DNA from: an uncultured Gammaproteobacteria bacterium
GTDB taxonomy: Bacteria > Patescibacteriota > Patescibacteriia > UBA9570 > CAZNEH01
DNA: 60,897 nt
Assembly (NCBI GenBank): GCA_964572175.1
Contig: CAZNEH010000003.1
Span: 7,488 to 68,384, forward strand
Direction: 5' to 3'
The notes beneath the pieces were generated by a model, which was given only the letters and a program-made list of their open reading frames with translations, was not told where the DNA came from and ran no database searches. A program made the position numbers and the translations under genes. This document shows positions 22,755-60,797 of the stretch, in pieces (positions within the stretch are counted from its first letter, which is position 1; the number at the start of each line of letters is the position of its first letter).

Positions 22755-22812
22755 AAAAAAACAAGCCGCAGAGCCCAGGAATGGGGTGCGACTTGGGGTG
22801 ACCGCGAGCGGC
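22755..22812 (-). terminator. intrinsic terminator of GC-rich cassette 2
   Basis: Minus strand GCCGC...GCGGC GC-rich hairpin followed by TTGTTTTTTT. Confidence 0.55.
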
Positions 22813-22814
22813 GG

Positions 22815-23027: not shown

Positions 23028-23067
23028 GGTGTCTCCGGGGAAGGTGCAGGGTGGTACGGTTCAAATT

Positions 23068-23096
23068 ATCCTATCATAAAACAGGGATTTTGTCAA
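23068..23096 (-). promoter_or_regulatory. promoter of cassette 2
   Basis: Minus strand TTGACA (23091-23096), 17 nt spacer, TAGGAT (23068-23073). Confidence 0.6.
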
Positions 23097-23143
23097 CCAG
23101 TGGCGTTTTTATTGCATAAAACCGCCCTGGCAAGTCCCTAAAT

Positions 23144-24378: not shown

Positions 24379-24425
24379 CCTGTCCTCTCCCCCCGCCCTC
24401 TCCACCTTCGTGGAGAGGGAGCTAT
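24379..24425 (+). repeat. copy C of the CCCTCTCCAC hairpin repeat (inverted relative to copy A)
   Basis: TCCTCTCCCCCCGCCCTCTCCACCTTCGTGGAGAGGGAGCT. It matches the reverse complement of 5106-5149 with one mismatch in the loop. Confidence 0.8.
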
Positions 24426-25402
24426 TTTGTTTGAGTAAATATATCTCTAATTATATCGTCGATGCTTTTTTCGTTGATGAGGATGTCGTCGACTGGAAGG
24501 TCTTGTAAAATTTTAGCAGCTATTTTTTTGTGTTCAGCAATCGGGACTTGTAAGACGACTCTTTTTTTGGAGAATTCTTTGATCTTGCCCATTCCTTTAA
24601 AGGTGTCTTTAGTCATTACCTCAGTAAAAGTAATTTCTAGAATTTTTTCGTCAACATACTTATCCATTAAATCTTTCATAGTCCCGTCGTAAATGATTTC
24701 TCCTTTATCAATAATGATTAAGCGTTTAGCTAAAGCAACTACATCTTCCATGTAATGAGAGGTTAACAAGATGGTAGTTTTGTATTTAGTATTATGCTCT
24801 TTAATAAATTCGCGGATTTTTTGTTGGGAAACTACGTCTAAACCAATAGTTGGTTCATCTAGGAATAAGATTTTTGGTTTATGCAGTAAAGCAGCCACTA
24901 GTTCGCATTTCATTCGTTGACCAAGAGATAATTTTCTAACTTGAACATTTAAAATGTCTTTGATGTCTAAAAGCTCGGTTAGTTCATCTAAGGTTTTTTT
25001 AAATTCGTCGTCTGGGACTTCGTAAATTTCTTTGTTTAAAATAAAACTTTCCATGGCTGGTAAATCCCACCAAAGTTGATTTTTTTGTCCCATTACCAAG
25101 GCAAACTGTTTTTGAAATTCGGGTTTACGATCCCAGGGAGTGTGGCCTAATACTTTAGCCTCACCTTCGGAAGGATATAAAATCCCAGAAAGCATTTTTA
25201 AGGTAGTAGTTTTTCCAGCTCCGTTTGGCCCTAGGAAGCCAACTAGCTCCCCTTCTTTGACTTCTAAGTTAACTTTTTTAACCGCATGGTTGTAAAGTTT
25301 TTTTCGTTTGAACAATGATTTGATTGAACCTTTTAAACCAGGTTCTTTTTTGTGGAAAGAATAGGTTTTAGATAGGTTTTTTGTGGAGATAATGTTTTTC
25401 AT
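24422..25402 (-). CDS. ABC transporter ATP-binding protein (ABC-2 exporter type)
   Basis: 326 aa with Walker A (GPNGAGKTT), signature (LSLGQRMK) and Walker B (ILFLDEPT). Confidence 0.9.
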   Translation of the reverse strand: MKNIISTKNLSKTYSFHKKEPGLKGSIKSLFKRKKLYNHAVKKVNLEVKEGELVGFLGPNGAGKTTTLKMLSGILYPSEGEAKVLGHTPWDRKPEFQKQFALVMGQKNQLWWDLPAMESFILNKEIYEVPDDEFKKTLDELTELLDIKDILNVQVRKLSLGQRMKCELVAALLHKPKILFLDEPTIGLDVVSQQKIREFIKEHNTKYKTTILLTSHYMEDVVALAKRLIIIDKGEIIYDGTMKDLMDKYVDEKILEITFTEVMTKDTFKGMGKIKEFSKKRVVLQVPIAEHKKIAAKILQDLPVDDILINEKSIDDIIRDIFTQTK

Positions 25403-28586: not shown

Positions 28587-28624
28587 TTTTTAGCTAATTT
28601 TAGGCTATTTTAAGGTGTTAATAT

Positions 28625-28653
28625 TGACAAAAGTGTATTTATATGATATCATA
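28625..28653 (+). promoter_or_regulatory. promoter of the structured RNA candidate
   Basis: TTGACA (28625-28630), 17 nt spacer, TATCAT (28648-28653). Confidence 0.6.
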
Positions 28654-28659
28654 TTATGT

Positions 28660-29035
28660 TGTTTACTGTAAGAGACGCTGGATGATTCCCTCAGGGACAA
28701 AGGGGTGCACCTTTTGAGCCTGATAAGATCCTAGCGTGAGTAATACAATCTCCTGAGAAGTCGGCATACAAATAAGTCCTGCGGAGGAGAGAGTACTGAT
28801 CATTAATGGCCATGGGTTCTAAAGTAACTGGGCCCATTGATGGTAAGCAGAGCGAATGACAAAGCCGCTGCCAAGTGCCGCCCGGGGAAAACTATCGAGT
28901 CCCTGGGTTGCCGGTAGCCCACCGCGTCGCGCTGTGGACCCTGGTATCGTCTGGGAGTACCGCTTGCGAGAGACCACTTTTGCATGAACAACTTGGGGCC
29001 TGCTATAGCACTACAGCAGCCCCTTCTTTTTTTTG
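28660..29035 (+). ncRNA. candidate structured RNA of unknown class (~375 nt); the 5' end is estimated
   Basis: A GC-enriched block in an AT-rich intergenic region with its own promoter. Nested helices can be drawn: 28675-28683/28728-28737, 28699-28703/28710-28714, 28749-28754/28785-28790, 28805-28811/28830-28838 and 28881-28887/28901-28907. It ends in a strong terminator (28995-29023 hairpin plus T-run to 29035). There is no SD-led ORF. Confidence 0.5.
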
Positions 29036-30499: not shown

Positions 30500-30515
30500 A
30501 TAAGATTTTATTTGT

Positions 30516-30542
30516 GCTGTTGTGATCTAGCTTGTCTAGATC
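30516..30542 (+). repeat. 3'-half copy of the triple-hairpin repeat
   Basis: GCTGTTGTGATCTAGCTTGTCTAGATC is identical to the right halves of 51818-51884 and 53820-53888. It overlaps the stop of the GT4 gene. Confidence 0.75.
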
Positions 30543-31570
30543 AGCAATTTTTTCAATTTTTCCGCTTGTAACTTCCAAGTGAATTCGTTAGCGACGCGGT
30601 TTTTGCCTTGTTCACCAAGGCGGTCAGCTAAGTCTTGGTTGTATAAAAGTTGAATGATGGCTTTGGCGATCATGTGAGGGTCTTCGGGGTCAACTAGGAA
30701 GCCGGTTTTGCCGTCGACAACAGCATCAGGGACGCCGCCAGAGTTACCAGCAATGACAGGTTTGCCGAAAGAATTAGCTTCGAGAAATACTAAGCCGAAA
30801 CCTTCGACGTCTTGGTCTGGTAAGGCGCGGGAAGGCATGATGAAAAGATTACAGCCAGCGTACAAGCGAGCGATTTCTTCTTCTGGAACGCGGCCCATGA
30901 ACTCGACGTTTTTTTCTAACTTATGTTTTTTTACAAAATCTTCAAGTGTGTCGCGGTAAGGACCGTCGCCAGCAATAAGATATTGGGCTTTAGGAAATTT
31001 TTTGATTACGGCAGGCATGGCGCGCAAGACCATGTCGTGGCCCTTGCGTTTTACAAGGCGACCCACAGAAAGGATTGTTGGTTGTTCAGGGCTAGAGGGT
31101 AGATCAGGGTACTTGGCTGGAGTGAGGTTGGGGCCAGGAGGAATAATGGAAATTTTATATTGATTACGGCCAGTTAAAAGTTTTTGTAATTCCCGTTTAG
31201 TGTAATTAGAAACAGTAGTGACTCGTTCACTAGCGTTTAATATTTTGGTCATGAGCCATTTTTTGCGAGGATATTTTAAAGGATAAGTAATATCCATGGC
31301 ATGAGTCATGGTAATGTATTTAATCGGCAGGACTTTACTAAGGAGCCAAACTACGGTGCCTAAAGGTAAAACTTGGCCGACTAAAACTAGTTCTATTTTT
31401 TCTTTCTTTATGGTTTTAGTTATAGTTAAAAAAGATCTGAGCCAGTGTTTTTTAATAACCAGAACAGATATCTTAGTGGACGGTAAATTTTGGACCATGT
31501 TAGCGTAGTAGTTGGCTACGCCTCCTACTTGAGGTGGGTATTCTAAAGTGACTAGCAATGTTTTTCTCAT
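30536..31570 (-). CDS. glycosyltransferase family 4
   Basis: 344 aa with EGFGLVFLEANSFGKPVIAGNSGGVPDAV. Confidence 0.85.
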   Translation of the reverse strand: MRKTLLVTLEYPPQVGGVANYYANMVQNLPSTKISVLVIKKHWLRSFLTITKTIKKEKIELVLVGQVLPLGTVVWLLSKVLPIKYITMTHAMDITYPLKYPRKKWLMTKILNASERVTTVSNYTKRELQKLLTGRNQYKISIIPPGPNLTPAKYPDLPSSPEQPTILSVGRLVKRKGHDMVLRAMPAVIKKFPKAQYLIAGDGPYRDTLEDFVKKHKLEKNVEFMGRVPEEEIARLYAGCNLFIMPSRALPDQDVEGFGLVFLEANSFGKPVIAGNSGGVPDAVVDGKTGFLVDPEDPHMIAKAIIQLLYNQDLADRLGEQGKNRVANEFTWKLQAEKLKKLLI

Positions 31571-36918: not shown

Positions 36919-36945
36919 TTGACAATAAAGGATAATTGTTATAAA
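36919..36945 (+). promoter_or_regulatory. promoter of GC-rich cassette 4
   Basis: TTGACA (36919-36924). The -10 is TATAAA (36940-36945) at only 15 nt, so the -10 register is uncertain. Confidence 0.45.
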
Positions 36946-36987
36946 AATAAAGGGCCTATATACATGCGCAGTGCGCGGGAGGGTGTG

Positions 36988-37236
36988 ATGACTGTCAGCG
37001 GAAAAAAGCCTAGCCCCAAGGACCTGATGGTGGCGATTCTGGTGATTCTGACCATGGTCCTGGTGGTCGGCATCCACAATCTGGGGAAGCAGCTCGAAGA
37101 GGCTCAGCAGGGCCTGGAGACGGCTCGAGCGAAGCACGCGGCCTGCGAGATGGAGGTGATGATGATCAGTGATATGCTCACTGACACCGAAGTCGCCTGG
37201 GCAGACTACACCGAAGAAGTGGTCTATGGTGAGTAG
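36988..37236 (+). CDS. GC-rich cassette: 82-aa single-pass membrane protein with a helical acidic tail
   Basis: Start chosen at ATG 36988 (MTVSGKKPSPKDLMVAILVILTMVLVVGI...), 4 nt after GGGAGGG. An in-frame ATG at 36964 is the alternative. The rest of the longer track ORF (from 36919) overlaps the promoter. Confidence 0.6.
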   Translation: MTVSGKKPSPKDLMVAILVILTMVLVVGIHNLGKQLEEAQQGLETARAKHAACEMEVMMISDMLTDTEVAWADYTEEVVYGE

Positions 37237-37256
37237 CCTCTGTTCGTGGGGGCAGA

Positions 37257-37303
37257 CCCTGTTTAGCGAGTTCCTTTGGGAGTTTGCGAGGCAGGGCTTT
37301 TTT
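37257..37303 (+). terminator. terminator of cassette 4
   Basis: CCCTGTTTAGC...GCGAGGCAGGG stem (10 of 11 positions pair, including two G-U) followed by CTTTTTT. Confidence 0.5.
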
Positions 37304-40072: not shown

Positions 40073-40081
40073 ATTATAGCA
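40073..40081 (-). promoter_or_regulatory. extended -10 promoter, leaderless, for mnmA-alaS
   Basis: Minus strand TGCTATAAT. The ATG at 40066 is 6 nt after the -10. There is no -35 match because the position falls in the cassette terminator. Confidence 0.5.
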
Positions 40082-40117
40082 AAAAAATCACCCGCCGTCG
40101 CATAAAGCTATGGCGGG
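40081..40117 (-). terminator. terminator of cassette 5a
   Basis: Minus strand CCCGCC...GGCGGG hairpin followed by TGATTTTTTT. Confidence 0.6.
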
Positions 40118-40128
40118 CAAGCCCGCGG

Positions 40129-40401
40129 TCACTCGAGAGTGACGCACGGGATGGATTTGGGCCGGAGGATGTTGGTCCAGACCTGGCCGGAGCCCTGCTG
40201 GAAGTGGACGATGATGTTGGCGGCCATGGTGGTGGCATCGATGGCCCTGATCTGGGTGCGGTTGAGGTCGAGTTGGGCCAGGACCAGGTCGATGATTTCG
40301 GCGTCGGTGAGGCTGTTGCGGTCCTGGACGACCAGATAGGCTCGGGAGATGTGAGTGGCACTGTAGGAAATGAGAAGAGCGGTGTTGTGAGTTGCGGACA
40401 T
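40129..40401 (-). CDS. GC-rich cassette: 90-aa protein, unknown function
   Basis: MSATHNTALLISYSATHISRAYLVVQDRNSLTDAEIIDLVLAQLDL... AAAGGAGG lies 5 nt before ATG 40401. This frame is chosen over the two overlapping minus-strand ORFs because of the SD. Confidence 0.6.
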   Translation of the reverse strand: MSATHNTALLISYSATHISRAYLVVQDRNSLTDAEIIDLVLAQLDLNRTQIRAIDATTMAANIIVHFQQGSGQVWTNILRPKSIPCVTLE

Positions 40402-40422
40402 GGAGACCTCCTTTGTGGACCA

Positions 40423-40473
40423 ACCTTAGTAAGGAGGGTATAGGTTGTCAAATGATTTTAACTAAGGTAAGGT
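40423..40473. promoter_or_regulatory. back-to-back divergent promoters sharing the -35 (TTGTCAA)
   Basis: Minus strand: TTGACA (40446-40451), 17 nt, TAAGGT (40423-40428). Plus strand: TTGTCA (40445-40450), 17 nt, TAAGGT (40468-40473). Confidence 0.55.
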
Positions 40474-40502
40474 AAATATGAACAAATGATGAGGAGGGTC
40501 TC

Positions 40503-40706
40503 ATGGCCAAGAGAAAAGTTATCGTACAAAAAGATCGCCACTGCCATACTAGCGGTTGTGAGTGGGTCGACTACGAGGACTGCGGCATGAGGTGTCAGCA
40601 GAGTCGCCTGGCCAGGGATTACTTCAATCGTGATCGAGGAATGGAGGGTTGCCGGGCTACTGGCGGTGGTCACATCCGGCTTCCGTCAGGCGCGGCCAAG
40701 TATTGA
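40503..40706 (+). CDS. GC-rich cassette: 67-aa Cys/His-rich basic protein (possible zinc-binding)
   Basis: MAKRKVIVQKDRHCHTSGCEWVDYEDCGMRCQQSRLARDYF... GAGGAGG lies 5 nt before the ATG. It is followed by a terminator. Confidence 0.6.
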   Translation: MAKRKVIVQKDRHCHTSGCEWVDYEDCGMRCQQSRLARDYFNRDRGMEGCRATGGGHIRLPSGAAKY

Positions 40707-40721
40707 GAGGGCTGACGTGTT

Positions 40722-40758
40722 CGAAGGGGTTCCCCAAGGGGCACCCCGTATTTTTTTT
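40722..40758 (+). terminator. terminator of cassette 5b
   Basis: GGGGT...ACCCC GC hairpin followed by GTATTTTTTTT. Confidence 0.55.
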
Positions 40759-40763
40759 ATTTA

Positions 40764-40896
40764 AAAAAGACCCACCGGTGTTCCGAACTGGTCGGAACTG
40801 GGTGGGCGGACCTGTAGGTCACTCGATGGGTCGTACCCAGTAGAGCTGGGTGTGGACTTCTACCGTGGGGTGTCTCCGTGGGCGGTTTGTGATTCT
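40764..40896 (-). ncRNA. candidate ~130-nt small RNA (cassette 5c), no ORF; the 5' end is estimated
   Basis: It has its own promoter (40903-40932) and a strong terminator (minus strand CCCACCCAGTTCCGACCAGTTCGGAACACCGGTGGG plus T6). There is no ATG/SD-led ORF. It contains CGGAGACACC, the same 10-mer that precedes the ATG of cassette 2. Confidence 0.45.
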
Positions 40897-40902
40897 AAGC
40901 CA

Positions 40903-40932
40903 ACCTTAGCAAATAGAGGCATGGTTTGTCAA
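40903..40932 (-). promoter_or_regulatory. promoter of cassette 5c
   Basis: Minus strand TTGACA (40927-40932), 18 nt, TAAGGT (40903-40908). It abuts a plus-strand extended -10 (TGTTATAAT, 40933-41) for 41007-41318. Confidence 0.55.
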
Positions 40933-44960: not shown

Positions 44961-45392
44961 CTAACTGAGTAATTGAAGAACAGTTTTGCAAGCTTGGGCG
45001 CCGAGATGGCGGCGGCGGTCAGCTTGGTCGTAAGTAGTGCAAGTGGAAATGCCAAAGCCAACTGGTTTTTCGAGATCTATAGAAAGTTTCATTAAATAGT
45101 GGCTTAAAGGTTCACAGATATATTCAAAATGCATGGTTTCCCCTTTTATTAGGCAGCCCATAGCTACAAAGCCATCAAAGTCTTGATGGATTTTTTTAAT
45201 TTGATAAGGGATTTCGTAAGATCCAGGTACCTCGAAAACGCTATACTCTACTCCATATTTTTTTAATACTTCTTCGGCCTGCTTGAGCATGTCTGAAGTA
45301 ATATCTTCATTAAAAACAGCTCGCACTAAAGCGATTTTTTTATTTTTAATCCCCTCTTTATTGATTTTAAACTTTACTGATTCGGTGGACAT
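44961..45392 (-). CDS. ribH: 6,7-dimethyl-8-ribityllumazine synthase
   Basis: 143 aa with KIALVRAVFNEDIT...VPGSYEIP...GCLIKGETMHFEYI. Confidence 0.8.
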   Translation of the reverse strand: MSTESVKFKINKEGIKNKKIALVRAVFNEDITSDMLKQAEEVLKKYGVEYSVFEVPGSYEIPYQIKKIHQDFDGFVAMGCLIKGETMHFEYICEPLSHYLMKLSIDLEKPVGFGISTCTTYDQADRRRHLGAQACKTVLQLLS

Positions 45393-45966
45393 ATTTTCCT
45401 ATTAAGTCGAATTCTAGATTGACTTTGTCATTAATTTTTAGATTTCCTAAGTTAGTGTTTTCTAAAGTATGTTGAATTAAGGCTATTTTATTTTTGTCGA
45501 ATATAGTTAAGCTTACGCCGTTGATAGTGATTGAGCCCTTGTTGATAATAAATTTATTATATTTAGCTGGAAATTTTAGAGTGAATATTTTAGAGTCTTT
45601 GTCTTTTTTGATGTTAGAAATAGTTCCGGTGCAGTCGACATGGCCAGAGACTAGGTGTCCGCCGACTAGATCGTTTAATTTTAAAGATCTTTCTAGATTT
45701 ACCAGTGGCATTTCGCTTTGCGAACTGCTCTGGCAAGCGGGAATGTTTTTATTAAAGGCAGTTAGGCGGATTGTTTCGGGCATGTGCTCGAAAGTGAAGC
45801 TAGTTTTAGTTTGTTTACAAATCGTAGAACAAATTCCGTTTAGGCAAATGCTTTCGCCTAGTTTTGTTTTCCAGGAGCTAGGTTTTTTTACAGTTATAAA
45901 AAGATGGCCGTTTTTTTCTTCGGTTTTGGTAATGGGTTTAAGAGATTGAACTATTCCGGAAAACAT
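45367..45966 (-). CDS. ribE: riboflavin synthase alpha chain
   Basis: 199 aa with MFSGIVQ and duplicated lumazine-binding halves (GESICLNGICST / GSITINGVSLT). Confidence 0.9.
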   Translation of the reverse strand: MFSGIVQSLKPITKTEEKNGHLFITVKKPSSWKTKLGESICLNGICSTICKQTKTSFTFEHMPETIRLTAFNKNIPACQSSSQSEMPLVNLERSLKLNDLVGGHLVSGHVDCTGTISNIKKDKDSKIFTLKFPAKYNKFIINKGSITINGVSLTIFDKNKIALIQHTLENTNLGNLKINDKVNLEFDLIGKYVHRISKV

Positions 45967-46309
45967 TTAGATCTTTTTTAATTTGTTTAATAAGAGCTTG
46001 TTTGTTTGGGAATTTTTTATTAGCTCTTATTTTCTTAATTAACTTAACAGAAATGTACTGATTGTACAAGTTTTTTTTAAAATTTGGGATATAAACTTCT
46101 AGTCTTTCTTGAGGGTCGTTAAAAGTTTTGGGTGAGCCAATAAAGGCAAGGGCTTTGTATTGCTTACCATGGATGCGAGTGAGAGTAATATAAACGCCCC
46201 GCGGAACGGGGCGATGTATATTTAAGTTAGCAGTAGGAAAACCTAGTTTTCTACCTCTTCCAGAAAATTTTCTTACTTTACCTATAATTCTTTTTTTACT
46301 TGAGTCCAC
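45938..46309 (-). CDS. riboflavin kinase (stand-alone RibF C-terminal domain)
   Basis: 123 aa with GRGRKLGFPTANL and a C-terminal E..IR...F-type motif region. Confidence 0.8.
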   Translation of the reverse strand: MDSSKKRIIGKVRKFSGRGRKLGFPTANLNIHRPVPRGVYITLTRIHGKQYKALAFIGSPKTFNDPQERLEVYIPNFKKNLYNQYISVKLIKKIRANKKFPNKQALIKQIKKDLNVFRNSSIS

Positions 46310-49854: not shown

Positions 49855-50877
49855 ATGACAGAGCCAGGAGCTAACCCTCGAATTGATCGACCAACTGCCG
49901 GAGCTAATTTTTATGTGCCAGATAAAATTAAAGAAGTTCCAGAAAAAATTAGAGAAGAGGTTAAGGGTGAGTACAGAAAGTTAATGGTGGCTACCCTAAA
50001 AAGATATGATCGTAATCAGACTCCAGTTGATGTGGCCATGCCTGCCTTTTTAAGTTTACAGGAATCTCATTTTGAAAGAGCTATAGAAAGAGTTCGTTTA
50101 AAAAGAGAGGCTCAAACAGATGAGTTAACTGGTCTTTTAAAAGTGACGGCCATGACTAATCAATATGAGATTACTCGAAAGAGATTATCTAATGAAAGTA
50201 CTCCAGAAGATCAGTGTGCAGTAGTTATTACTTTTGATTTAGACTTTTTTAGACAGATAAATGATAAAATAGGACATCCAGGAGCAGATACTATTTTAGC
50301 AGAGATTGGTCAAAAATTAGGAGATGAGTCTAACAATTTAAGACCTGGTGATATTGCTGGTCGGGTAGGTGGAGACGAGTTTGCAATGATTTTAAGCAAC
50401 ATAAAAAAATCTGAAGTAGAAACAGCTATTCAAAGAATTCATCAAATAGTTGGGTCTATTTCTAGACCAGAAATTGGAGAAGTAAAAAGTAGTTTTGGAG
50501 CTTTGATTATTAATAAGGGAGATACTAGGCTTTTTGATGATGTGCGAACAGCAAGTGACGAGGCGACCTATGGAGTTAAAGACTATGGTCGTAATGGATA
50601 TGCTATTGTTGATGGGGATCAAGTAAAGATTGTTAATAGAGATGAGAATGGTGAATATCAAGAAAGTTACCAAGGGACTGAAATGCCTAAACCAGATGAG
50701 GCTCATCGAATAAAAGAAGTTGGTAATGCAATACAAAGAATTACCGAGGAAATGGATAAAGCTAAAGAAAAGCCTTGTTTTGATAAAGCTAAAATGACTG
50801 AAGTGGAGTCAGCTGTAGAAACTATTGGTAAAGCTTATTTTGAAGCTAAGAATTGTAACGAGAGTATTACAGAGTAG
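49855..50877 (+). CDS. GGDEF-domain protein (putative diguanylate cyclase)
   Basis: 340 aa with RVGGDEFAMIL and upstream FDLDFFRQINDKIGHPGAD. The N- and C-terminal extensions are of unknown function. Confidence 0.8.
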   Translation: MTEPGANPRIDRPTAGANFYVPDKIKEVPEKIREEVKGEYRKLMVATLKRYDRNQTPVDVAMPAFLSLQESHFERAIERVRLKREAQTDELTGLLKVTAMTNQYEITRKRLSNESTPEDQCAVVITFDLDFFRQINDKIGHPGADTILAEIGQKLGDESNNLRPGDIAGRVGGDEFAMILSNIKKSEVETAIQRIHQIVGSISRPEIGEVKSSFGALIINKGDTRLFDDVRTASDEATYGVKDYGRNGYAIVDGDQVKIVNRDENGEYQESYQGTEMPKPDEAHRIKEVGNAIQRITEEMDKAKEKPCFDKAKMTEVESAVETIGKAYFEAKNCNESITE

Positions 50878-51808
50878 TGATTGGACGAGATTGAGTAATG
50901 TAAAACTTAGATTTATATAAAGCCCATTCGATATCTTGAGGGGAGCCATAGTGCTCCTCTATTTTTTGACAGATAATAGAAAGTTTTTTGATTTGAGCGT
51001 CAGTAAGTTTTTGTTTGCTGGCCTTAGTTTTAGGAACCTTCTTCTCCTCTACTCCAGCAGTTTTAGTTTTTACGATCATCATGTTTTGTTCAGAAATGTT
51101 TTTGTCTAAAATTCGAGGAATGTTTCCTTTGGCGATAACATAGGTGTCTGGAGTAACTAAGCCACCAACAATAGCCTCTCCTAACCCGTAGCCAGCTTCT
51201 AAAACTATTTGGTCAAGATCGCGGGTAACAGGATGAGCAGTAAAGGTTATGCCAGAGATTTCGGATTGAACCATGGTTTGGATGACGACCGCCACAGAGA
51301 CTTTAGCGTCTTGTAAGTTTTTTTCGTAGCGGTAGAAGATGGCGCGCGGAGTAAATAAAGAGGACCAGCATTTTTTGACGCTGTCTAGTAAATCTTTATT
51401 GGTTACGTTTAAATATGTTTCTAACTCACCAGCCCAAGAAGCAACTTTAGAATCTTCGGCTGTGGCAGAAGAACGAATAGCTACGAACTTGGCTTTTAGT
51501 TTTTTAAAGTCAGCTTCGATTTCTTTGGCAATGTCTTTTGGGAATTCTACGTCGGCAATAAGATCTCTGATTACATTAGAAGCTTTGTCAACGGAATTAA
51601 TATCTTCAAAGTTTACTTTTTTTAATTGAGTAATAATTTCGACATTAAGGTCGGTCTCTTCTAAGAAACGGTCAAAGGCATTGGCCGTAACTACAAAGCC
51701 AGGAGGAACCGGGATTTTAGCTTGAGTCATCTCGCCCAAAGAAGCGCCTTTTCCCCCAGCCTCGTTCACGCTTTTTTTATTAATTTTTTTGAAGTTTTTA
51801 CAATACAT
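50867..51808 (-). CDS. stand-alone PpsA/PPDK-type N-terminal ATP-grasp (nucleotide-binding) subunit
   Basis: Start set at MYCKNFKK (51808). The track start is a GTG inside repeat 51818-51884. Motifs: AGGKGASLGEM, VAIRSSATAEDS, and an end at YITQSRPITTL, the usual end of the PPDK_N domain. There is no swivel or TIM-barrel domain. Confidence 0.85.
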   Translation of the reverse strand: MYCKNFKKINKKSVNEAGGKGASLGEMTQAKIPVPPGFVVTANAFDRFLEETDLNVEIITQLKKVNFEDINSVDKASNVIRDLIADVEFPKDIAKEIEADFKKLKAKFVAIRSSATAEDSKVASWAGELETYLNVTNKDLLDSVKKCWSSLFTPRAIFYRYEKNLQDAKVSVAVVIQTMVQSEISGITFTAHPVTRDLDQIVLEAGYGLGEAIVGGLVTPDTYVIAKGNIPRILDKNISEQNMMIVKTKTAGVEEKKVPKTKASKQKLTDAQIKKLSIICQKIEEHYGSPQDIEWALYKSKFYITQSRPITTL

Positions 51809-51817
51809 AGTTTCGAG

Positions 51818-51884
51818 GACCGAGATAAACTCGGTCACAACAGCCCATCCTAACAGTGCTGTTGTGATCTAGCTTGTCTAGATC
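51818..51884 (+). repeat. triple-hairpin intergenic repeat, full copy
   Basis: Three consecutive hairpins: GACCGAG-ataaa-CTCGGTC, ACAACAGC-loop-GCTGTTGT and GATCTAG-cttgt-CTAGATC. Confidence 0.85.
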
Positions 51885-51893
51885 TATAAAGAT

Positions 51894-52916: not shown

Positions 52917-52963
52917 CAAATGGTTTTTTTGCCTAATTTTAGCCTATTTAAGGGGGTTATATC

Positions 52964-52992
52964 TTGACAAGGGGGTGAAAGTGTGTTATCCT
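52964..52992 (+). promoter_or_regulatory. promoter of GC-rich cassette 6a
   Basis: TTGACA (52964-52969), 17 nt, TATCCT (52987-52992). Confidence 0.6.
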
Positions 52993-53075
52993 ACTATGAT
53001 CGTAGCGCAAGGCAAATTCAGCCTTAGCGGACGTGAATCGACACGCTCTTCCCCCACCCTCCACCAGGAGAAACG

Positions 53076-53744
53076 ATGAACCCTATCGTCAACACCCCCT
53101 CCCCGGCCTACATGGCCTTCCTGTCCCTCCTCATCAGCCAGACCATCCAGTCCGGCAACCGCATCGTCGTGACCGTGTGCCACGGTGACAAGCGCAAGCG
53201 TGAGAGCGATGGCGTCGAGGAGCTCACCGAGCTCGGTCACGCCCAGGGCGGCGTGGACGCCATGTTCATCAAGAGCGTCGTGCCCCAGGGCATCAAGCTC
53301 GAGATCCTCTGGTCCGGCCATCACCGGACGGATCAGATGGCCAAGATCCACGCGGGCGTCTTCCCCGAGGCCGAGGTCATCAAGGACGAGGAGCTGGACT
53401 TCGTGCCCGCCTACGAGGCTCACCTGGATGGTGATCTCGACAAGTTCAAGGCCGAGGTCGCGGCGATCAACAGCGCCGGCGGCACGGTGGGCAATGCCCG
53501 GATCCTCGCGGCCAAGCACGAGATCTCCGGCTACGCCTCCCAGATGACCGATGACGTGTCTGGCTGGGTGACGAAGCAGCGGGCCCAGATCGTCCTCGGC
53601 ATGGGGCACCGCTGCTGGGCCAACGGCGCGGCTCACCACGACACGCCCTTCATGCCGAACGTGGGCGACATGTACTTCCACCTGGTCTCCGCCGATGGCG
53701 AGATCATGGACGTGATCTACGTGCCCTGCCCGCTCTCGGCCTAG
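53076..53744 (+). CDS. GC-rich cassette: divergent histidine-phosphatase-superfamily-like protein (CHG in place of RHG)
   Basis: 222 aa with AGGAG 5 nt before the ATG. Blocks align by eye to the PGAM/SixA-type pattern: IVVTVCHGDK...LTELGHAQ (RHG...LT..G..QA), ILWSGHHRTDQMA (SS..RA.QTA) and QIVLGMGHRCW (late His). Confidence 0.45.
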   Translation: MNPIVNTPSPAYMAFLSLLISQTIQSGNRIVVTVCHGDKRKRESDGVEELTELGHAQGGVDAMFIKSVVPQGIKLEILWSGHHRTDQMAKIHAGVFPEAEVIKDEELDFVPAYEAHLDGDLDKFKAEVAAINSAGGTVGNARILAAKHEISGYASQMTDDVSGWVTKQRAQIVLGMGHRCWANGAAHHDTPFMPNVGDMYFHLVSADGEIMDVIYVPCPLSA

Positions 53745-53766
53745 CGACGACGGCCTCACGGCCAAG

Positions 53767-53819
53767 CCCCCTCCTCTTCATTCCCTCACGGGAGTGCGGA
53801 GGACGGGGCGCTTTTTTTT
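53767..53819 (+). terminator. terminator of cassette 6a
   Basis: CCCCCTCCTC...GAGGACGGGG stem (9 of 10 paired) followed by CGC and T8. Confidence 0.6.
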
Positions 53820-53888
53820 GACCGAGATAAACTCGGTCACAACAGCACAAATTAAAAAAGTACTGTTGTGATCTAGCTTGTCTAGATC
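53820..53888 (+). repeat. triple-hairpin intergenic repeat, full copy inside GC-rich patch 6
   Basis: Same arms as 51818-51884; the middle loop differs (cacaaattaaaaaagta) and the middle stem is one bp shorter. It lies exactly between the 6a terminator and the 6b promoter. Confidence 0.85.
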
Positions 53889-53898
53889 ATCAACTAGG

Positions 53899-53927
53899 TT
53901 GACAAGCACGGTGAAATGCGGTTAGAT
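53899..53927 (+). promoter_or_regulatory. promoter of GC-rich cassette 6b
   Basis: TTGACA (53899-53904), 17 nt, TTAGAT (53922-53927). Confidence 0.6.
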
Positions 53928-53963
53928 AAAAGGGAATTCAAGCGTCCGAAGGAGGGTAAGAAA

Positions 53964-54890
53964 ATGAGTGTGATTCCGTTCAGTGAGACTGTGGCTACGC
54001 GTTTGGCTGGTGGTGAGCATCTGATGATCCTGGTGCAGCCGGGCGAGAGGGTCGATGGCAAGCTGACCAACATCGGAATGCGGAGAAGTCGGTGGGCGGC
54101 CGAAGTTCTCAAGGGATTGATACCTGATCGGTTGGTGCCTCAGGTATTCTATGACCCCAGTGATCCAGTGGCTCGTTGTACGGCCGAGGTCATCGTCGAG
54201 GGCACTGACGGGCATCTGATGGGTACGCACAGCTCTCTGGATTCTGGAGGCTTGCCCCAGAATACGACCGAATGGGTTCAGAGCCCTCATCGTCAGTCTG
54301 GCACCGTGAACATCGGAGTGAGCGTCACGACCAAGGTTCTGGCTGGAGGTAAGCACGAGAACTTTGGTCCGGGATGCCTGATCTATTACTTCGTCTCCTC
54401 TGGGGGGAGGATCGTGAGCACGATCTACGGTTACCCCGGCCTGGAAGAAGAGCGTGCTGATCGTCGGCGAGAGGGTTACAACTCGGCTGAGAGCCATGTG
54501 GCTGTGGTCTTCATTCGTGACCTGGAAGCAGCCGTGGAGATGGTTGCTAACCCTAAGATCCATGGTCGGCTTCGAGAGTTGAGCTACCAGACCGTGAGGA
54601 TCTACGCCCCAGGACCTGCGATACTAGAGTTCATGGAGGCTGCAGATCAGTTCCACCGGCTCCTGGAGGATACTCGGATCGAGCTTGACACCAGGTTGAC
54701 TCACGCTGACTCGATGGACACGCCGATCCACCTGGCCTGGGGTATCGGTTGGAACCTGAAGCTGGGCCAGGCAGCAATTGTACTTGGTCAGTGGGAGTGG
54801 CGTTGGTTTGGTCCGAAGGTCAAGGCCGTGATCTATTTCATCGACCAGAAGACCCTGCGGGTCTGCGACCACGAGACTATCGAGGTCTAA
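53964..54890 (+). CDS. GC-rich cassette: 308-aa protein with a degenerate histidine-phosphatase-like N-terminal half (QPG in place of RHG)
   Basis: Start set at MSVIPFSETVAT (53964), 8 nt after GAAGGAGG. LMILVQPGERVDGKLTNIGMRRSRWAAEVL and VFYDPSDPVARCTAEVI follow the same spacing as the RHG...LT..G and S...RA.QTA blocks. The C-terminal half is of unknown function. Confidence 0.4.
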   Translation: MSVIPFSETVATRLAGGEHLMILVQPGERVDGKLTNIGMRRSRWAAEVLKGLIPDRLVPQVFYDPSDPVARCTAEVIVEGTDGHLMGTHSSLDSGGLPQNTTEWVQSPHRQSGTVNIGVSVTTKVLAGGKHENFGPGCLIYYFVSSGGRIVSTIYGYPGLEEERADRRREGYNSAESHVAVVFIRDLEAAVEMVANPKIHGRLRELSYQTVRIYAPGPAILEFMEAADQFHRLLEDTRIELDTRLTHADSMDTPIHLAWGIGWNLKLGQAAIVLGQWEWRWFGPKVKAVIYFIDQKTLRVCDHETIEV

Positions 54891-54908
54891 GCGGTGGAGG
54901 ACCGCTGT

Positions 54909-54953
54909 CAGCGCAAGGAGTTCTCTGCGGAGAGCTCTGAGCGCTGTTTTTTT
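54909..54953 (+). terminator. terminator of cassette 6b
   Basis: CAGCGC...GAGTTCTC-TGCG-GAGAGCTC...GCGCTG hairpin followed by T7. Confidence 0.6.
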
Positions 54954-54963
54954 CTGCTTTAAG

Positions 54964-54988
54964 ACCGCGGGTATGGGACCCCGCGGGT
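54964..54988. repeat. CCGCGGG hairpin repeat copy
   Basis: ACCGCGGGTATGGGACCCCGCGGGT, between cassette 6b and the stop of 55002-56021. Confidence 0.75.
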
Positions 54989-55001
54989 ATTGATAATAGG
55001 A

Positions 55002-56021
55002 TTATGAAGTATAAGATTGCTTAATGATTTTAACGATACCGTGGTTGGCTTTGACTTCTACGAGCATGCCGTCGCGAAGGACCTTGGTGGCTACTTGAGT
55101 GCCGATGACGCAGGGTTTTTTAAGCTCTCGGGCTAGGATGGCGGCGTGGCAAGTAATACCCCCTTCATTAGTAATAAAACCGGCTGATTTTTTCATTAAA
55201 CTTAAATATTCAGGACGAGTCATGCCAGTAACAAGAATGTCTCCTTGGTTAAAGTTTTTAACTTTACGAGGATTTAGAATTATTTTTACTCTACCTTTAA
55301 CCTTGCCCGGATAAGCAGTTTGCCCTTGAATAAGGTTTTTATTTTTTTTGGGCTGAAGCTGTTTTTCTATAGCCAAAGCTTTTTTACCAGAGAATATTTT
55401 AATTTGACCCTTTTCAACTACTACGGCACCGTTTTTATAACGAGCTTGGAGAATTTTTTTAGGCGGGAGCTGGCCGGTTTGCCAGTAATTATCAAGTTCT
55501 TCTGGAGTCATATTTAAAGCGTCGGGTGAGATTTGTTTGCCCATGACAACCATAAATTTTTCTATTTCAGTATAAACTGGCTCGGCGTATACTCTAGCCT
55601 CTTCTAATTTAGGTAAAAGTTTCTTTAGTTTTTGCGGAGACAGATAATCAGTGACGAATTTCATTCCCCGATGCGGACCGCCGTAGACATGCATTAGCTC
55701 AAGGAACTGATTAAATTTTTCCTGGTCTATTTTACGGCGTTTATTTTTTTTAATAAAATCTATGATTTCATCGCTAGCTTTGATAATATCTTTGCACCAC
55801 TTAAGATGATTTTGTTTGAGAAGGTATTTTCCTAAAGAGTCTTTGTCGGCTTTATCGTAATAACAAGTACTATGACCTTGATGTGAGACCATAATTGCTC
55901 TTTTAAGATTTTTGCCCAAATAGGGTTTTAGAAAAGTAATATATTCTTGTCCTAAGTAGCCGCAGGTTAAAATACTCCACTGGCCAGACCAATTTTTTTC
56001 CCAAGTTTTGTTTTTTATCAT
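55002..56021 (-). CDS. swivel-domain protein 2 (unknown N-terminal domain + PEP-utilising mobile domain)
   Basis: 339 aa. C-terminus: GQTAYPGKVKGRVKII...GDILVTGMTRPE...TNEGGITCHAAILARELKKPCVIGT. The N-terminal region is related to that of 51894-52901. Confidence 0.85.
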   Translation of the reverse strand: MIKNKTWEKNWSGQWSILTCGYLGQEYITFLKPYLGKNLKRAIMVSHQGHSTCYYDKADKDSLGKYLLKQNHLKWCKDIIKASDEIIDFIKKNKRRKIDQEKFNQFLELMHVYGGPHRGMKFVTDYLSPQKLKKLLPKLEEARVYAEPVYTEIEKFMVVMGKQISPDALNMTPEELDNYWQTGQLPPKKILQARYKNGAVVVEKGQIKIFSGKKALAIEKQLQPKKNKNLIQGQTAYPGKVKGRVKIILNPRKVKNFNQGDILVTGMTRPEYLSLMKKSAGFITNEGGITCHAAILARELKKPCVIGTQVATKVLRDGMLVEVKANHGIVKIIKQSYTS

Positions 56022-57458: not shown

Positions 57459-58802
57459 TTAATGTAATTTTTTTACTATTCCTTTCTCTGTGTCTACCTC
57501 CACTAAATCTCCGTCTTTCAAGATTTTTGTAGCGATGCGGGTAGAAACAATGCAAGGTATATTTAATTCGCGGGAAACAATGGCAGCGTGGCAGGTCATT
57601 CCTCCTTCGTCAGTGATTAAAGCGCTGGCTTTTTTAATAGCCATGATATAGTCTGGGCTAGTCATAGAAGCGACTAAAATTTCTCCCCTTTTTAATTTAC
57701 TTACTTGCTTAGGTGAGGTTAATATTTTTACCCTACCCCTTATTTTAGGACCTTGGCTAACAACAGTGCCTTTTAACCGCTTTGTTTTAGGGTTTATTTT
57801 TTGTTCTAAGTAAGGCTTAATCGCTTGCTTAGCTTTTTGTCCGGATAGATAGTGAAGTTTATTTGTTTTTTCATCAAAGTAAAAGAAAGTATGAGCGAGG
57901 CGTTTTTTGATTTCAGAAGTTTTTACTTTTTTGTTTTTAGTAACTAAGTCTAGAACTTTTTGGCAATTGTAGTAACAAGCGTGTTCGTATGGAATGGGCA
58001 GTTGTTTTAAAAATAGATCAATATAATGATTGGCTAAAAAGATATAAAATTTACGGTAGTCTTGCCACCAAATAGAAAAACTTAACACATCAGCCAGGTC
58101 TTTTATTTCTTTTGATAAGTTATATTTTTTGGCTATTTGTTTTTTATTTATTCTGGGCCTGGAAATTGGTTTTAATTTTTTCTTTCTCTTGGCGAAATAA
58201 CTAACTGGCAGGACTCGAGTGTGGTGATAGCTGTTCAAGAGACAGAAATATTTTTGCTGGTGTTTTTTTAGGTCTTTGGTCTTAGATAGATCTAGTTCTT
58301 CTTGTTGGTAAAAAGAAAGTTTTTCTGGAGCTGAGAGGCGCTCAAATACGTGAACAAAATCTGTGCTCGGTACAGCTTTAGCTAGTTTTTGTTTTAGAAG
58401 TTCTTCCATTCCCCAATTAGCTAGTTCTGGTAGTAAAACAATGCCCCAGAATTTAAGATAAGCCTCATGCCACTCGGGATATAGCTCTAAGGCGTTTTGC
58501 TTGGTGATCTTAGCTTGGATCTTTAAAAGATCCTGCAAGTCTTTTTTCCAGAGTTTAAAGTATTTCAGGGAGTCTTTTTTTAGGTATTTTTGGTAATTTT
58601 TTATACCGGCGTTAATTAATTCTTCGCGGTCTACAATAAACATGACTTTTTCGTCATGCCAATACCCTATTGAATTTGGCCAGGGGTAAAATTTTTGATT
58701 AAAGTAAGAAAATCCTAAATTAAAATAGTCTGGGTAAATTAGCTTACCGTCAATTGGCCCCCATTTAAAAAGTTCTTTTTTAGGATTGATTTTTACCTGC
58801 AT
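57459..58802 (-). CDS. swivel-domain protein 4
   Basis: 447 aa. C-terminus: RGRVKILTSP...GEILVASMTSPD...TDEGGMTCHAAIVSRELNIPCIVST. Confidence 0.85.
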   Translation of the reverse strand: MQVKINPKKELFKWGPIDGKLIYPDYFNLGFSYFNQKFYPWPNSIGYWHDEKVMFIVDREELINAGIKNYQKYLKKDSLKYFKLWKKDLQDLLKIQAKITKQNALELYPEWHEAYLKFWGIVLLPELANWGMEELLKQKLAKAVPSTDFVHVFERLSAPEKLSFYQQEELDLSKTKDLKKHQQKYFCLLNSYHHTRVLPVSYFAKRKKKLKPISRPRINKKQIAKKYNLSKEIKDLADVLSFSIWWQDYRKFYIFLANHYIDLFLKQLPIPYEHACYYNCQKVLDLVTKNKKVKTSEIKKRLAHTFFYFDEKTNKLHYLSGQKAKQAIKPYLEQKINPKTKRLKGTVVSQGPKIRGRVKILTSPKQVSKLKRGEILVASMTSPDYIMAIKKASALITDEGGMTCHAAIVSRELNIPCIVSTRIATKILKDGDLVEVDTEKGIVKKLH

Positions 58803-59376
58803 CTTTCTTTAATTTTTCAAGATTATTTAAAGCCAGTTCCCTAAATTCATCAAAGAAAAAATTGTTTGTTAGCTTTTCTAGCATAACAAGTAATTTGTCT
58901 AAGTTTTTGTATTTATCTTTAATGTTGTTTATGCGGGTTAAGGTGTATCGATCTAGAGAGTCAAAATCGTGGAATATTTTTTTCTGTTCAGTGTCGTAAT
59001 AATCTGCCCAATTTTTTATATCTAATTGATCAAAGTCGTGAATAGAAATAATTTCGACTATCTCGGCTGATTTTTTTGGGTTGTAATTTACTTGCTCTAA
59101 AATGTTTTTAGCGATTTTTGCGCCGCTAAGCATATGAACAAGTTTGCCGTTCACAAGCTTGTCTGGGCCAGTAACGTGCTTAAAATGCTCTGGAAGGATG
59201 GCAGAGTGGCCAATATCGTGCATAATAGCAGCGGGAATTAGTACTTCTAAATCTAGGTCTAATTCTCCTTGGTAATTTTCTAGAGATTTAACAGTTTCTT
59301 GGGCATGGGTATAGTCATCAGGACGACCTTTTTTTAGTAATGGCGTGGCTAATTTCCAGATTTGATCATAGTTCAT
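58780..59376 (-). CDS. HD-domain metal-dependent phosphohydrolase
   Basis: 198 aa with H...HD (THAQETVKSL...AAIMHDIGHS) and later H/D residues (HMLSGAKIA, ISIHDFD). It is embedded in the swivel array with overlapping stops and starts. Confidence 0.75.
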   Translation of the reverse strand: MNYDQIWKLATPLLKKGRPDDYTHAQETVKSLENYQGELDLDLEVLIPAAIMHDIGHSAILPEHFKHVTGPDKLVNGKLVHMLSGAKIAKNILEQVNYNPKKSAEIVEIISIHDFDQLDIKNWADYYDTEQKKIFHDFDSLDRYTLTRINNIKDKYKNLDKLLVMLEKLTNNFFFDEFRELALNNLEKLKKDAGKNQS

Positions 59377-60797
59377 AGTATTGTGACGATTCCTTTATTA
59401 GCGTCTACTTCAACTAAGTCGTTATCTTTAATAATTTGAGTGCCAGTAGTAGTTCCAACAACGCAAGGTTTTTTTAGCTCTCTAGAAATAATAGCGGCAT
59501 GGGAAATTATTCCCCCGGTATCTGTAACAAAGGCCCCGGCTTTTTTCATGGCTACAATCAAATCTGGATTAGTGGCTGAAGAAACAAGGATGTCTCCTTT
59601 TTTTACTTTTTTGACGTCGTTTTCTACTAAAACTATCTTGGCTTGGCCCCGAACTTTGCCAGCATAAGCAGTCATTCCCTTGAGAATTTTTTGTTTACTT
59701 ACTTTCTTTTTTGTTTTTTTGGTGCGTTTTTTGATTTGCTTTTCACATTCTGAGCCCTGGTAAATTTTTACTTGGCCCCTAGTAATATAAAAACAGCATT
59801 TTTTAAGACGAGTTTTAGTAACATTACGGTATAATTCAGCATTACTATTTAATAAAGCGTCTTTTAGTTCAGGGAAAATTAAGTATTTTAGGTTTTTAAC
59901 AGGAATGTCTAAGCGATGAGAAAATTCGGCAAAGACCTTGTCCATGGCTACATAAGATTTTTGATAAGCGCCCTTGCGATAATCTTTGATATGCATGAAT
60001 TCTGAAGAGACTTCTAGTAAATATACTAAATTTCTTGGAAGATTAAATTTTTTAATGATTTCTTGTTTTTGCTTGGTAATATCTTTGTAATGCCGTAATA
60101 TTTTTTGCTTTTGTTTTTTAGGGTCTCCGGATTTTTTATCTTCGGCTAATAGTTTTTTAAGAAGTTTTTTATCCATGATTGGGCCAGAGTAAGCATAAGT
60201 AAGCCAAGAATATTTTTTTAAATAATTATCTAACGAGCCCTTATTAATTAATAAGTTTAAGCGAGCGATTTGAGCTTTTTGGACCTCAGATTGTTTTTCA
60301 GAAGAACTTAAAATAGAATAGTATTTGCTAGTGTTTTTAGGGATGTTTTTTTTGAGCTGTTTATTAATTTCATCAGATAAAAAGTTTTTTTCTAAACCAT
60401 CAACAAAAACTGGAATCCATCCCCAGGCTCTAGTTTTTCTGAGGATTTTGCGATAATCTTGATATAGTTTTAATAATTCTTTGTCGCTAAGCTTGTCTAC
60501 TCTTTTAACTGAATTGCTAAAATCTATTAATTGCTGGCTATATTTATAAATATTTCTTAGGCAGCGTTGATAGAATTTTTTGTCTTTTTTGATTTTGTTA
60601 AATAAAAAACGACCTACTTTTAAGGTCGATTCTGAATCAAAATAAAAACTAAGATGATCTTTTTCAATAATGCCCATGGTTTGCTTAACTACTGGGCCCT
60701 TGGTGATTTTAGCCATATCTTTGGTTGCAACAAGATCAGATATATACCAAGGATATACGTACATTTTTTTACGATCAAAAAAGAATTTTAACGCCAT
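59373..60797 (-). CDS. swivel-domain protein 5
   Basis: 474 aa. C-terminus: GMTAYAGKVRGQAKIV...GDILVSSATNPD...TDTGGIISHAAIISRELKKPCVVGT. Confidence 0.85.
   Translation of the reverse strand: MALKFFFDRKKMYVYPWYISDLVATKDMAKITKGPVVKQTMGIIEKDHLSFYFDSESTLKVGRFLFNKIKKDKKFYQRCLRNIYKYSQQLIDFSNSVKRVDKLSDKELLKLYQDYRKILRKTRAWGWIPVFVDGLEKNFLSDEINKQLKKNIPKNTSKYYSILSSSEKQSEVQKAQIARLNLLINKGSLDNYLKKYSWLTYAYSGPIMDKKLLKKLLAEDKKSGDPKKQKQKILRHYKDITKQKQEIIKKFNLPRNLVYLLEVSSEFMHIKDYRKGAYQKSYVAMDKVFAEFSHRLDIPVKNLKYLIFPELKDALLNSNAELYRNVTKTRLKKCCFYITRGQVKIYQGSECEKQIKKRTKKTKKKVSKQKILKGMTAYAGKVRGQAKIVLVENDVKKVKKGDILVSSATNPDLIVAMKKAGAFVTDTGGIISHAAIISRELKKPCVVGTTTGTQIIKDNDLVEVDANKGIVTIL

Follow-up and report, generated by a model that had tools for sequence, protein, structure and literature searches.

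Why should two GC-rich genes lie, on the opposite strand, in the middle of an array of genes for phosphohistidine-swivel proteins? The question is raised by a 60,897-nucleotide (nt) stretch of contig CAZNEH010000003.1, from a genome placed among the Patescibacteriota; we refer to this whole stretch as the window. The two genes, which we call P1 and P2, encode proteins of 222 and 308 amino acids (aa). The window is AT-rich (38% GC overall), and the patch that carries the genes (52951-55050) reaches 56-61% GC. An earlier note on this DNA, made by eye, had described the patch, the plus-strand coordinates of both genes and the way in which they split a minus-strand swivel array, all of which are confirmed by the list of open reading frames (ORFs) and a GC scan. 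It had also tentatively read both products as histidine-phosphatase-like proteins, the second one perhaps catalytically dead, and had linked the pair to the swivel system by inference only. We find that P1 belongs to a rare protein family that occurs almost only beside swivel arrays of candidate-phyla-radiation-type bacteria, and that P2 is a lineage-specific orphan with its own promoter-like site, outside the conserved module.

P1 alone is difficult to place. It matched nothing in Pfam, PHROGs or PADLOC, and a word-indexed homolog search returned no relative. Its match to sixA in NCBIfam is faint (E = 0.026, residues 35-101 only) and far under the cut-off of the SixA equivalog TIGR00249 (14.4 versus 74.5 bits), and its best solved match is the PGAM-type structure 3eoz_A (E = 0.087). 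An exhaustive phmmer search of 1.84 billion representative sequences recovered five full-length relatives (192-223 aa, E = 5e-9 to 1e-3), and a profile search together with two collection scans added about nine more, giving a family of about 14 members besides P1. A hidden Markov model (HMM) of nine relatives, built without P1, recognizes P1 at 82 bits (E = 2e-27). In a search of the PDB, the profile of P1 and its first five relatives matched 3eoz_A at 7e-9, TIGAR at 0.018 and PGAM5 at 0.59; these matches cover the N-terminal half only, with the RHG, LTxxGxxQ and second-arginine motifs inside. Four of five relatives match Pfam His_Phos_1 (PF00300; best E = 5e-5), and one relative, P0011, carries a precomputed PF00300 assignment. 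Through these intermediates, sequence comparison places P1 in branch 1 of the histidine phosphatase superfamily, as an atypical new member of a small, previously unnamed subfamily, which bears out the family guessed by eye and, at the level of sequence, its fold. The predicted order of strands and helices in P1 is compatible with an alpha/beta/alpha sandwich; we do not count it as evidence.

The phosphate pocket of this superfamily is formed by four residues that are described as conserved in all histidine-family phosphatases (PMC12051542). In the family alignment, the pocket motifs are RHG, the second arginine (SGxxRTxQCA) and the second histidine (FSHSP). The motifs that had been picked out in P1 are each present, and they align as had been supposed: CHG, which follows IVVTV, corresponds to RHG, LTELGHAQ to LTxxGxxQ, HHRTDQMA (within WSGHHRTDQMA) to the second catalytic arginine motif, and GMGHR to the second catalytic histidine. 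Columns invariant across the family, P1 included, in two alignments are the nucleophile His36, Gly37, Arg84 and His178. The catalytic tetrad is thus retained at His36, Arg84 and His178, but the arginine of RHG is replaced by Cys35. Of about 15 members, none but P1 shows CHG in place of RHG or GHRC in place of SHSP, and P1 is the longest branch of the family tree, with 20-32% identity to every other member. Its substitutions, at window positions 53178-53183 (C35-H36) and 53607-53615 (H178-R179-C180), place a cysteine beside each catalytic histidine and a new arginine, Arg179, directly after the second one. Such a Cys2His2-like set might coordinate a metal or be joined by a disulfide; speculatively, the pocket changes may compensate for the lost arginine, disable the site or re-gate it.

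These changes raise the possibility that P1, perhaps together with P2, acts in this genome as a pseudo-phosphatase, that is, as a binder, decoy or inhibitor of the swivel carriers or of their loader. The unique CHG and GHRC motifs and the long branch of P1 fit such a role, as does P2, which, if related, keeps none of the four catalytic residues. We know of no catalytically altered protein of the histidine-phosphatase fold in a bacterial phosphohistidine system. Catalytically dead, ligand-binding members of the superfamily are documented (PMC10728186), for example the acid-phosphatase-like binders of fleas. The absence of one or two catalytic residues makes such binders a precedent for P1, where one is missing, and for P2 should it prove related, although they are branch 2 proteins, secreted and eukaryotic. 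Set against this, P1 retains three of the pocket residues and gains Arg179, its uninterrupted ORF carries expression signals and reads as strongly coding, and the relatedness of P2 to P1 or the family is not significant. We regard a pseudo-phosphatase as unlikely.

We assessed the genomic setting of the family in ten loci with a member: the window and the loci L002, L003, L004, L007, L008, L010, L011, L012 and L013 (the L004 protein is found also in L005 and L006; L008 is Candidatus Moranbacteria UBA2282). A gene with the Pfam PEP-utilizers (phosphoenolpyruvate-utilizing) swivel domain lies less than 2 kb from the family gene in nine of the ten (the window and eight of the nine others), always on the opposite strand. 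The family gene and its closest swivel neighbour are 49-190 nt apart in six loci (the window, L002, L003, L004, L007 and L008) and 0.3-1.6 kb apart in L011-L013. L010 is the exception: this 2.2-kb contig begins within the family gene and has no upstream flank; there the family gene (1-586) is split over two overlapping frames, which may reflect a frameshift, a sequencing error or a pseudogene. A Proteobacteria contig found by pattern matching (L009) held no family gene and was discarded. L007 repeats the layout of the window nearly gene for gene, with a PPDK_N gene, the phosphatase gene on the other strand and four swivel genes with an HD gene among them. The PPDK_N and HD genes recur in related arrays, the HD protein of the window having an ortholog in the L002 array (E = 4e-65). 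The family gene is found inside the array in the window, L003 and L007, and at its edge beside gltX in L004, L005 and L008.

Because the linkage to the array is conserved while the position within it varies and the swivel 1 orthologs of L004 and L008 have no insert beside them, the P1 family is an accessory, movable component of the array and not a random passenger. The link to the swivel array proposed earlier therefore stands as an association, and the family gene is not missing from, or located elsewhere in, all related genomes that keep the array. Of the pair, only P1 has relatives beside other arrays; no P2 relative was found in the fetched loci. The term "inserted" is only partly apt, since a position inside or at the edge of an array is the normal site of the family. 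No flanking repeats, terminal inverted repeats or target duplications were found around the patch, and no recombinase gene was seen in the array region (ORF translations and general Pfam scans).

The alternative that both genes are recent foreign passengers in a permissive intergenic spot, with no functional tie to the swivel system, draws on the extreme composition contrast (GC at third codon positions, GC3, of 0.93 and 0.67 versus about 0.3), on about eight other GC-rich self-contained units in the window, on the toxin-antitoxin and other accessory genes held by arrays elsewhere, and on the lack of P2 relatives. The conserved neighbourhood contradicts it for P1, whose family adjoins swivel genes in nine loci of different genomes and was found nowhere else, and we found no transposon-like ends and no viral relatives of P1, P2 or the family. 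It could still hold for P2 alone; for the pair, we consider it very unlikely.

Several related arrays are interrupted by other genes (L007 7829-8441 and 11997-12516; L004 3895-5148; L002 12187-12870), among them ParE/PhdYeFM toxin-antitoxin genes, an AAA_14/DUF4143 ATPase and a DNA methyltransferase, and swivel arrays may lie in variable, accessory-gene-rich regions. In L002 and L003, the swivel gene divergent from the phosphatase gene (3479-5182, 567 aa, and 3524-6340, 938 aa, respectively) combines an HTH_26 domain with a swivel domain, a fusion that hints at a transcription-factor output for some carriers.

The neighbours of the family gene also bear on a role as a riboflavin-pathway phosphatase. 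The L007 family gene adjoins RibBA, ORFs that by eye resemble riboflavin genes (read without a profile) lie about 7 kb from the patch at 44961-46309, and the superfamily includes such an enzyme (PMC12051542). A rib gene is adjacent in one of the ten loci only, the constant neighbour being a swivel gene, and the Aquifex enzyme (PDB 9MMH) is absent from the PDB matches of the family profile at E <= 1, leaving this role extremely improbable.

We characterized the array by its domains. On the minus strand, the genes run in the order PPDK_N, swivel 1, [P1 and P2 on the plus strand], swivel 2, 3 and 4, HD and swivel 5. All five flanking swivel proteins match PF00391 (PEP-utilizers) with 80-91 bits (E = 1e-23 to 1e-26), above its 23.1-bit cut-off, and all five keep the phosphohistidine motif GG[IVM][TI][CS]HAAI. 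The PPDK_N protein aligns end-to-end with the ATP-grasp domain of PEP synthase in the PDB (8a8e, 3e-73) and with that of 5hv1/5fbs (1e-67); the latter are deposited as PEP synthase, and we take them to be rifampin phosphotransferases. The swivel proteins match enzymes of the PEP synthase/rifampin-phosphotransferase type in the histidine domain only (4e-22, 1e-11). Their N-terminal domains returned nothing but coiled-coil noise against solved structures, with no substrate-binding domain matched. Pfam scans showed no PEP/pyruvate-binding barrel in the array proteins, and PADLOC-DB defence profiles matched none of the array proteins, P1 or P2. By domain content, the array is thus a split relative of PEP synthase and rifampin phosphotransferase, with one ATP-grasp protein, five carriers and one HD hydrolase, each swivel protein joining an N-terminal domain of its own to a phosphohistidine swivel domain at the C-terminus. 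The exact sequence of swivel protein 2, looked up to find strains without the insert, was not on record, and a search of the literature for swivel arrays in Patescibacteria, a link between such arrays and phosphatases, the accessions and GC-rich islands of such genomes returned nothing.

In the reading that we favour, to which we give a probability of roughly 0.45, the family enzyme is a SixA-like phosphate drain on the swivel carriers, P1 is the altered copy of this genome, and P2 is an orphan. SixA dephosphorylates the phosphocarrier NPr through a transient phosphohistidine on its His8 (PMC7948535, PMC6282199) and also acts on Ndk (PMC12934123). By analogy, the family probably acts in a SixA-like manner on swivel histidines. 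The ATP-grasp (PPDK_N) protein would load these histidines, as in PEP synthase and rifampin phosphotransferase, and the RHG histidine of the family enzyme would pick up the phosphoryl group of a charged swivel histidine and hand it to water. Draining or resetting the carriers would be regulated separately from the array operon, through the opposite-strand promoter of the family gene. P1 itself, as the most divergent member and the one that has lost the RHG arginine, would probably be a slowed or re-tuned version; Arg179 might stand in for the missing arginine, or the pair of new cysteines might confer sensitivity to redox state or metals.

SixA is an apt comparison in several respects: it belongs to the same superfamily, has an RHG-type nucleophile histidine, is a small single-domain protein and is the best NCBIfam match of P1. 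Its substrate NPr is a phosphohistidine carrier, and the relay to which NPr belongs begins with an enzyme that has a PEP-utilizer swivel domain (PMC6282199, PMC7948535). Yet P1 is no SixA equivalog. The family is longer by about 40-60 residues and has motifs of its own (SGxxRTxQCA, FSHSP and a C-terminal PCP), P1 lacks the RHG arginine, and in place of HPr-type carriers the presumed partners are swivel proteins of a split PEP-synthase-like kind. The best solved matches of the family profile, 3EOZ (a PGAM5-like "putative phosphoglycerate mutase" of Plasmodium) and TIGAR, are eukaryotic, as is PGAM5, and share no context or function with the P1 family. PEP synthase and rifampin phosphotransferase share the ATP-grasp and swivel domains with the array but hold ATP-grasp, substrate and swivel histidine domains in one chain, whereas the array distributes them over one loader and five carriers. 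The known regulators of PEP-synthase-type enzymes, PSRP/PDRP (DUF299), act on threonine, and to our knowledge no dedicated histidine-family phosphatase has been described for PEP synthase or rifampin phosphotransferase.

The match of the PPDK_N protein to 5hv1/5fbs also bears on a different role, in which P1-family enzymes hydrolyse a small-molecule phosphoester, such as a product of the swivel proteins of the kind that rifampin phosphotransferase makes, and thereby reverse or complete the array chemistry instead of controlling the carriers. The best solved match of the family is PGAM-type and not SixA, P1 scores far under the SixA cut-off, and most characterized members of the superfamily act on small phosphoesters, all of which speaks for a small substrate. 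One such member is described in PMC12051542. The N-terminal domains of the swivel proteins, on the other hand, match no solved substrate-binding domain, and a small-molecule target is itself unproven; moreover, at about 200 aa with modest insertions, the family would be near the minimal core typical of protein-directed members. We consider this role possible but doubtful.

Several observations weigh against a SixA-like drain. The gene neighbourhood is the sole ground for its substrate. Having lost the RHG arginine, one of the four conserved residues (PMC12051542), P1 may be weak or inactive. The structure models are unusable: the single-sequence AlphaFold2 model of P1 has a pLDDT (predicted local distance difference test) score of 49 and recovers only noise in Foldseek (methyltransferases, TM ~0.23), and the P2 model has a pLDDT of 36. 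Family members are far less common than swivel arrays seem to be, which makes the family an accessory and not a core part, and the orthologs of swivel protein 1 in L004 and L008 are flanked by other swivel genes with no insert. The toxin-antitoxin and other accessory genes found in arrays raise the possibility that these serve as landing sites in general. Finally, P2 is left unexplained.

A more elaborate scheme can be drawn, which we think improbable. Candidate-phyla-radiation bacteria would run a multi-carrier phosphohistidine system with one ATP-grasp loader, many swivel proteins whose N-terminal domains have diversified, and a dedicated, separately transcribed phosphatase drain. Selection acting on the mRNA, or constant exchange, would keep the drain gene GC-rich against the mutational bias of the host. 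In this genome, a Cys-His/His-Arg-Cys pocket would have turned the drain into a redox- or metal-gated switch or inhibitor that works with P2.

P2 does not share the footing of P1. The motifs read in it (LMILV-QPG, LTNIGMRR and YDPSDPVARCTAEV) are each present, and its first ~160 residues align collinearly with P1 and the family, with QPG at RHG, LTNIG at LTxxG and LIYYFVSSGGRIVSTIY at the last strands. In the best alignments, none of the four pocket residues is kept, and the second arginine and second histidine have no counterpart. The likeness is statistically weak (p about 0.01-0.05 for the N-terminal part against P1): hhalign gives a probability of 2.8%; the family HMM gives 0.2-2.2 bits (shuffle p = 0.0005-0.01) and ranks P2 14th of the 270 ORFs of the window (E = 5.5); and comparison with P1 gives p = 0.022 by Smith-Waterman, collinear, and E = 0.14 by BLASTP, in a partly different register. 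A search of 5.8 billion proteins returned only P2 itself, and there was no match in Pfam, NCBIfam, PHROG, PADLOC or the PDB. We found no internal duplication (p = 0.79). The earlier view of P2 as a histidine phosphatase or dead paralog is thus possible but undemonstrated, and we give roughly one chance in three that its N-terminal domain is a decayed phosphatase copy. P2 may be a decayed duplicate of P1 fused to a C-terminal half that resembles nothing else.

Could the patch be an artifact? A Logan contig (SRR8146440_187756), assembled independently, is 100% identical to window positions 53819-55128 and calls P2 identically. Because this contig crosses the junction from P2 into the AT-rich swivel gene, an assembly chimera can be ruled out. 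GC at the three codon positions is 0.63/0.40/0.93 in P1, a textbook high-GC coding signature, and 0.62/0.43/0.67 in P2, against a GC3 of 0.27-0.34 in the flanking minus-strand swivel genes. The long antisense ORFs of the patch are the usual shadow frames of GC-rich genes; for the one at 52986-53765, codon-position GC and homology place the gene on the plus strand. Non-coding RNA was likewise rejected as an explanation, the patch being coding: Rfam matched nothing in the whole window at gathering thresholds and gave only chance microRNA and small-RNA matches in the patch at E <= 1, and no tRNAs were found. The gene content of the window is bacterial and, by eye, candidate-phyla-radiation-like (ribosomal-protein-, AlaRS- and penicillin-binding-protein-like ORFs, read without a profile).

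Each of the two genes is a self-contained unit with a promoter-like site, a Shine-Dalgarno sequence and a hairpin followed by a T run (Table 1). The Shine-Dalgarno sequence of P1 (AGGAGA) lies 5 nt upstream of its ATG and that of P2 (AGGAGG) 8 nt upstream of the ATG at 53964, which is the likelier P2 start because an alternative ATG, at 53916, falls in the promoter spacer. Read-through past the P1 terminator-like site is possible because the stem adjoining the T run is weak. The L002 relative of P1 also has its own promoter-like site, Shine-Dalgarno sequence and terminator. Promoter patterns of the TTGACA-17-TAnnnT type occur 13 times in the window against 2.2 expected; they precede native operons and GC-rich units alike, the latter in seven of the 13 cases.

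Table 1. Features of the swivel array, the P1 and P2 units and the triple-hairpin element, in window coordinates.
Feature	Position	Strand	Basis or remark
Triple-hairpin element, half copy	30506-30547		~21 kb away
PPDK_N (ATP-grasp, nucleotide-binding) protein	50867-51838	-	Pfam PF01326, 7e-102
Triple-hairpin element, second full copy	51818-51890		Between PPDK_N and first swivel gene; z = -5.2
Swivel protein 1, 335 aa	51894-52901	-	C-terminal PEP-utilizers, 4e-26; GGITCHAAI histidine motif
P1 promoter-like site	52964-52992	+	TTGACA-17-TATCCT, TG ahead of -10
P1, 222 aa, divergent member of rare histidine-phosphatase subfamily (by sequence)	53076-53744	+	Active site C35-H36-G37, R84, H178-R179-C180
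P1 terminator-like hairpins then T8	53781-53818	+	Sequence and RNA fold
Triple-hairpin inverted-repeat element, 75 nt	53819-53893		Between P1 and P2 cassettes; minus-strand RNA fold z = -6.3
P2 promoter-like site	53899-53927	+	TTGACA-17-TTAGAT, read from sequence; weak -10 hexamer
P2, 308 aa, orphan protein	53964-54890	+	N-terminal ~160 aa faintly P1-like, C-terminal half resembles nothing
P2 intrinsic-terminator-like strong hairpin and T7	54909-54953	+	Fold -53.5 kcal/mol, z = -4.2
Swivel protein 2, 339 aa	55002-56021	-	PEP-utilizers, 1.5e-23
Swivel protein 3, 465 aa	56018-57415	-	PEP-utilizers
Swivel protein 4, 447 aa	57459-58802	-	PEP-utilizers
HD-domain phosphohydrolase-like protein, within array	58780-59376	-	Pfam HD, 1e-6
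Swivel protein 5, 474 aa, first gene of minus-strand operon	59373-60797	-	PEP-utilizers
Promoter-like site 5' of swivel 5 operon	60836-60807	-	Pattern scan

A triple-hairpin element of 70-75 nt (GATCTAG...CTAGATC, ACAACAGC...GCTGTTGT and GACCGAG...CTCGGTC; z = -5 to -6) separates the P1 and P2 cassettes. Its two full copies bracket the first swivel gene together with P1, and its candidate roles are those of an operator, a terminator or a repeat element. It does not behave like the attC site of a mobile cassette, as it lies between the cassettes and not at their ends and also occurs elsewhere. The second full copy is overlapped by the extended N-terminus that the listed GTG start gives the PPDK_N protein, whose true start is probably an ATG near 51808 (MYCKNFKK...).

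The composition of P1 proved to be a property of its family. The GC3 (synonymous sites) of the family gene exceeds that of the host locus in all ten loci, by 0.04 to 0.60: 0.93 against 0.33 in the window, 0.84 against 0.30 in L011, 0.76 against 0.24 in L013, 0.72 against 0.32 in L012, 0.84 against 0.54 in L007, 0.71 against 0.50 in L002, 0.44 against 0.30 in L008, 0.42 against 0.30 in L004, 0.47 against 0.35 in L010 and 0.49 against 0.45 in L003. A single recent donor cannot explain the GC-rich copies, because the three most GC-rich ones are the deepest and mutually most divergent branches. We found no family member in a GC-rich genome. The excess may have arisen by repeated transfer from unsampled GC-rich donors with partial amelioration, or it may be maintained by selection or biased conversion.

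The other GC-rich units of the window vary in size and content. The largest patch (2177-5100) holds three minus-strand units, each with a TTGACA-type promoter and a ATAAAAAAAGCGCCC-type terminator. Two of these units are paralogous (products of 237 and 233 aa, DNA about 76-80% identical) and have no Pfam family; the third encodes a Peptidase_M29 protein (Pfam 4e-46, GC3 0.92). Small units at 22760-23130, 36919-37300 and 40075-40930 each have a consensus-like promoter, a strong Shine-Dalgarno sequence, a short GC-rich ORF and a hairpin with a T run; among their products are a hydrophobic protein of 70 aa and two proteins of 90 aa, one of them encoded next to two shorter units, and none has a Pfam family. 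At 28624-29030, a promoter (TTGACA-17-TATCAT) and a strong terminator flank some 350 nt of moderate GC richness that lack both a long ORF and an Rfam match; a small RNA or the gene of a very short peptide may lie there. Two 46-nt terminator-like hairpins 19 kb apart (5100-5145 and 24383-24428) are 96% mutually complementary.

The new points are the association of the family with split swivel arrays and its persistent GC excess. Phosphohistidine phosphatases are few, and their targets are only now emerging, SixA acting on NPr and Ndk. The genomic address of the P1 family points to a specific class of targets: swivel carriers that stand free, as parts of a split PEP-synthase-like system typical of candidate-phyla-radiation genomes and itself uncharacterized. 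If the drain proposed here is real, it would offer a handle on the role of large swivel arrays, a second bacterial case of the enzymatic erasure of a phosphohistidine carrier, and, in P1, a natural RHG-to-CHG active-site variant with which to probe the chemistry. The P1 family thus suggests an as yet undescribed control part of the swivel phosphate-transfer system.

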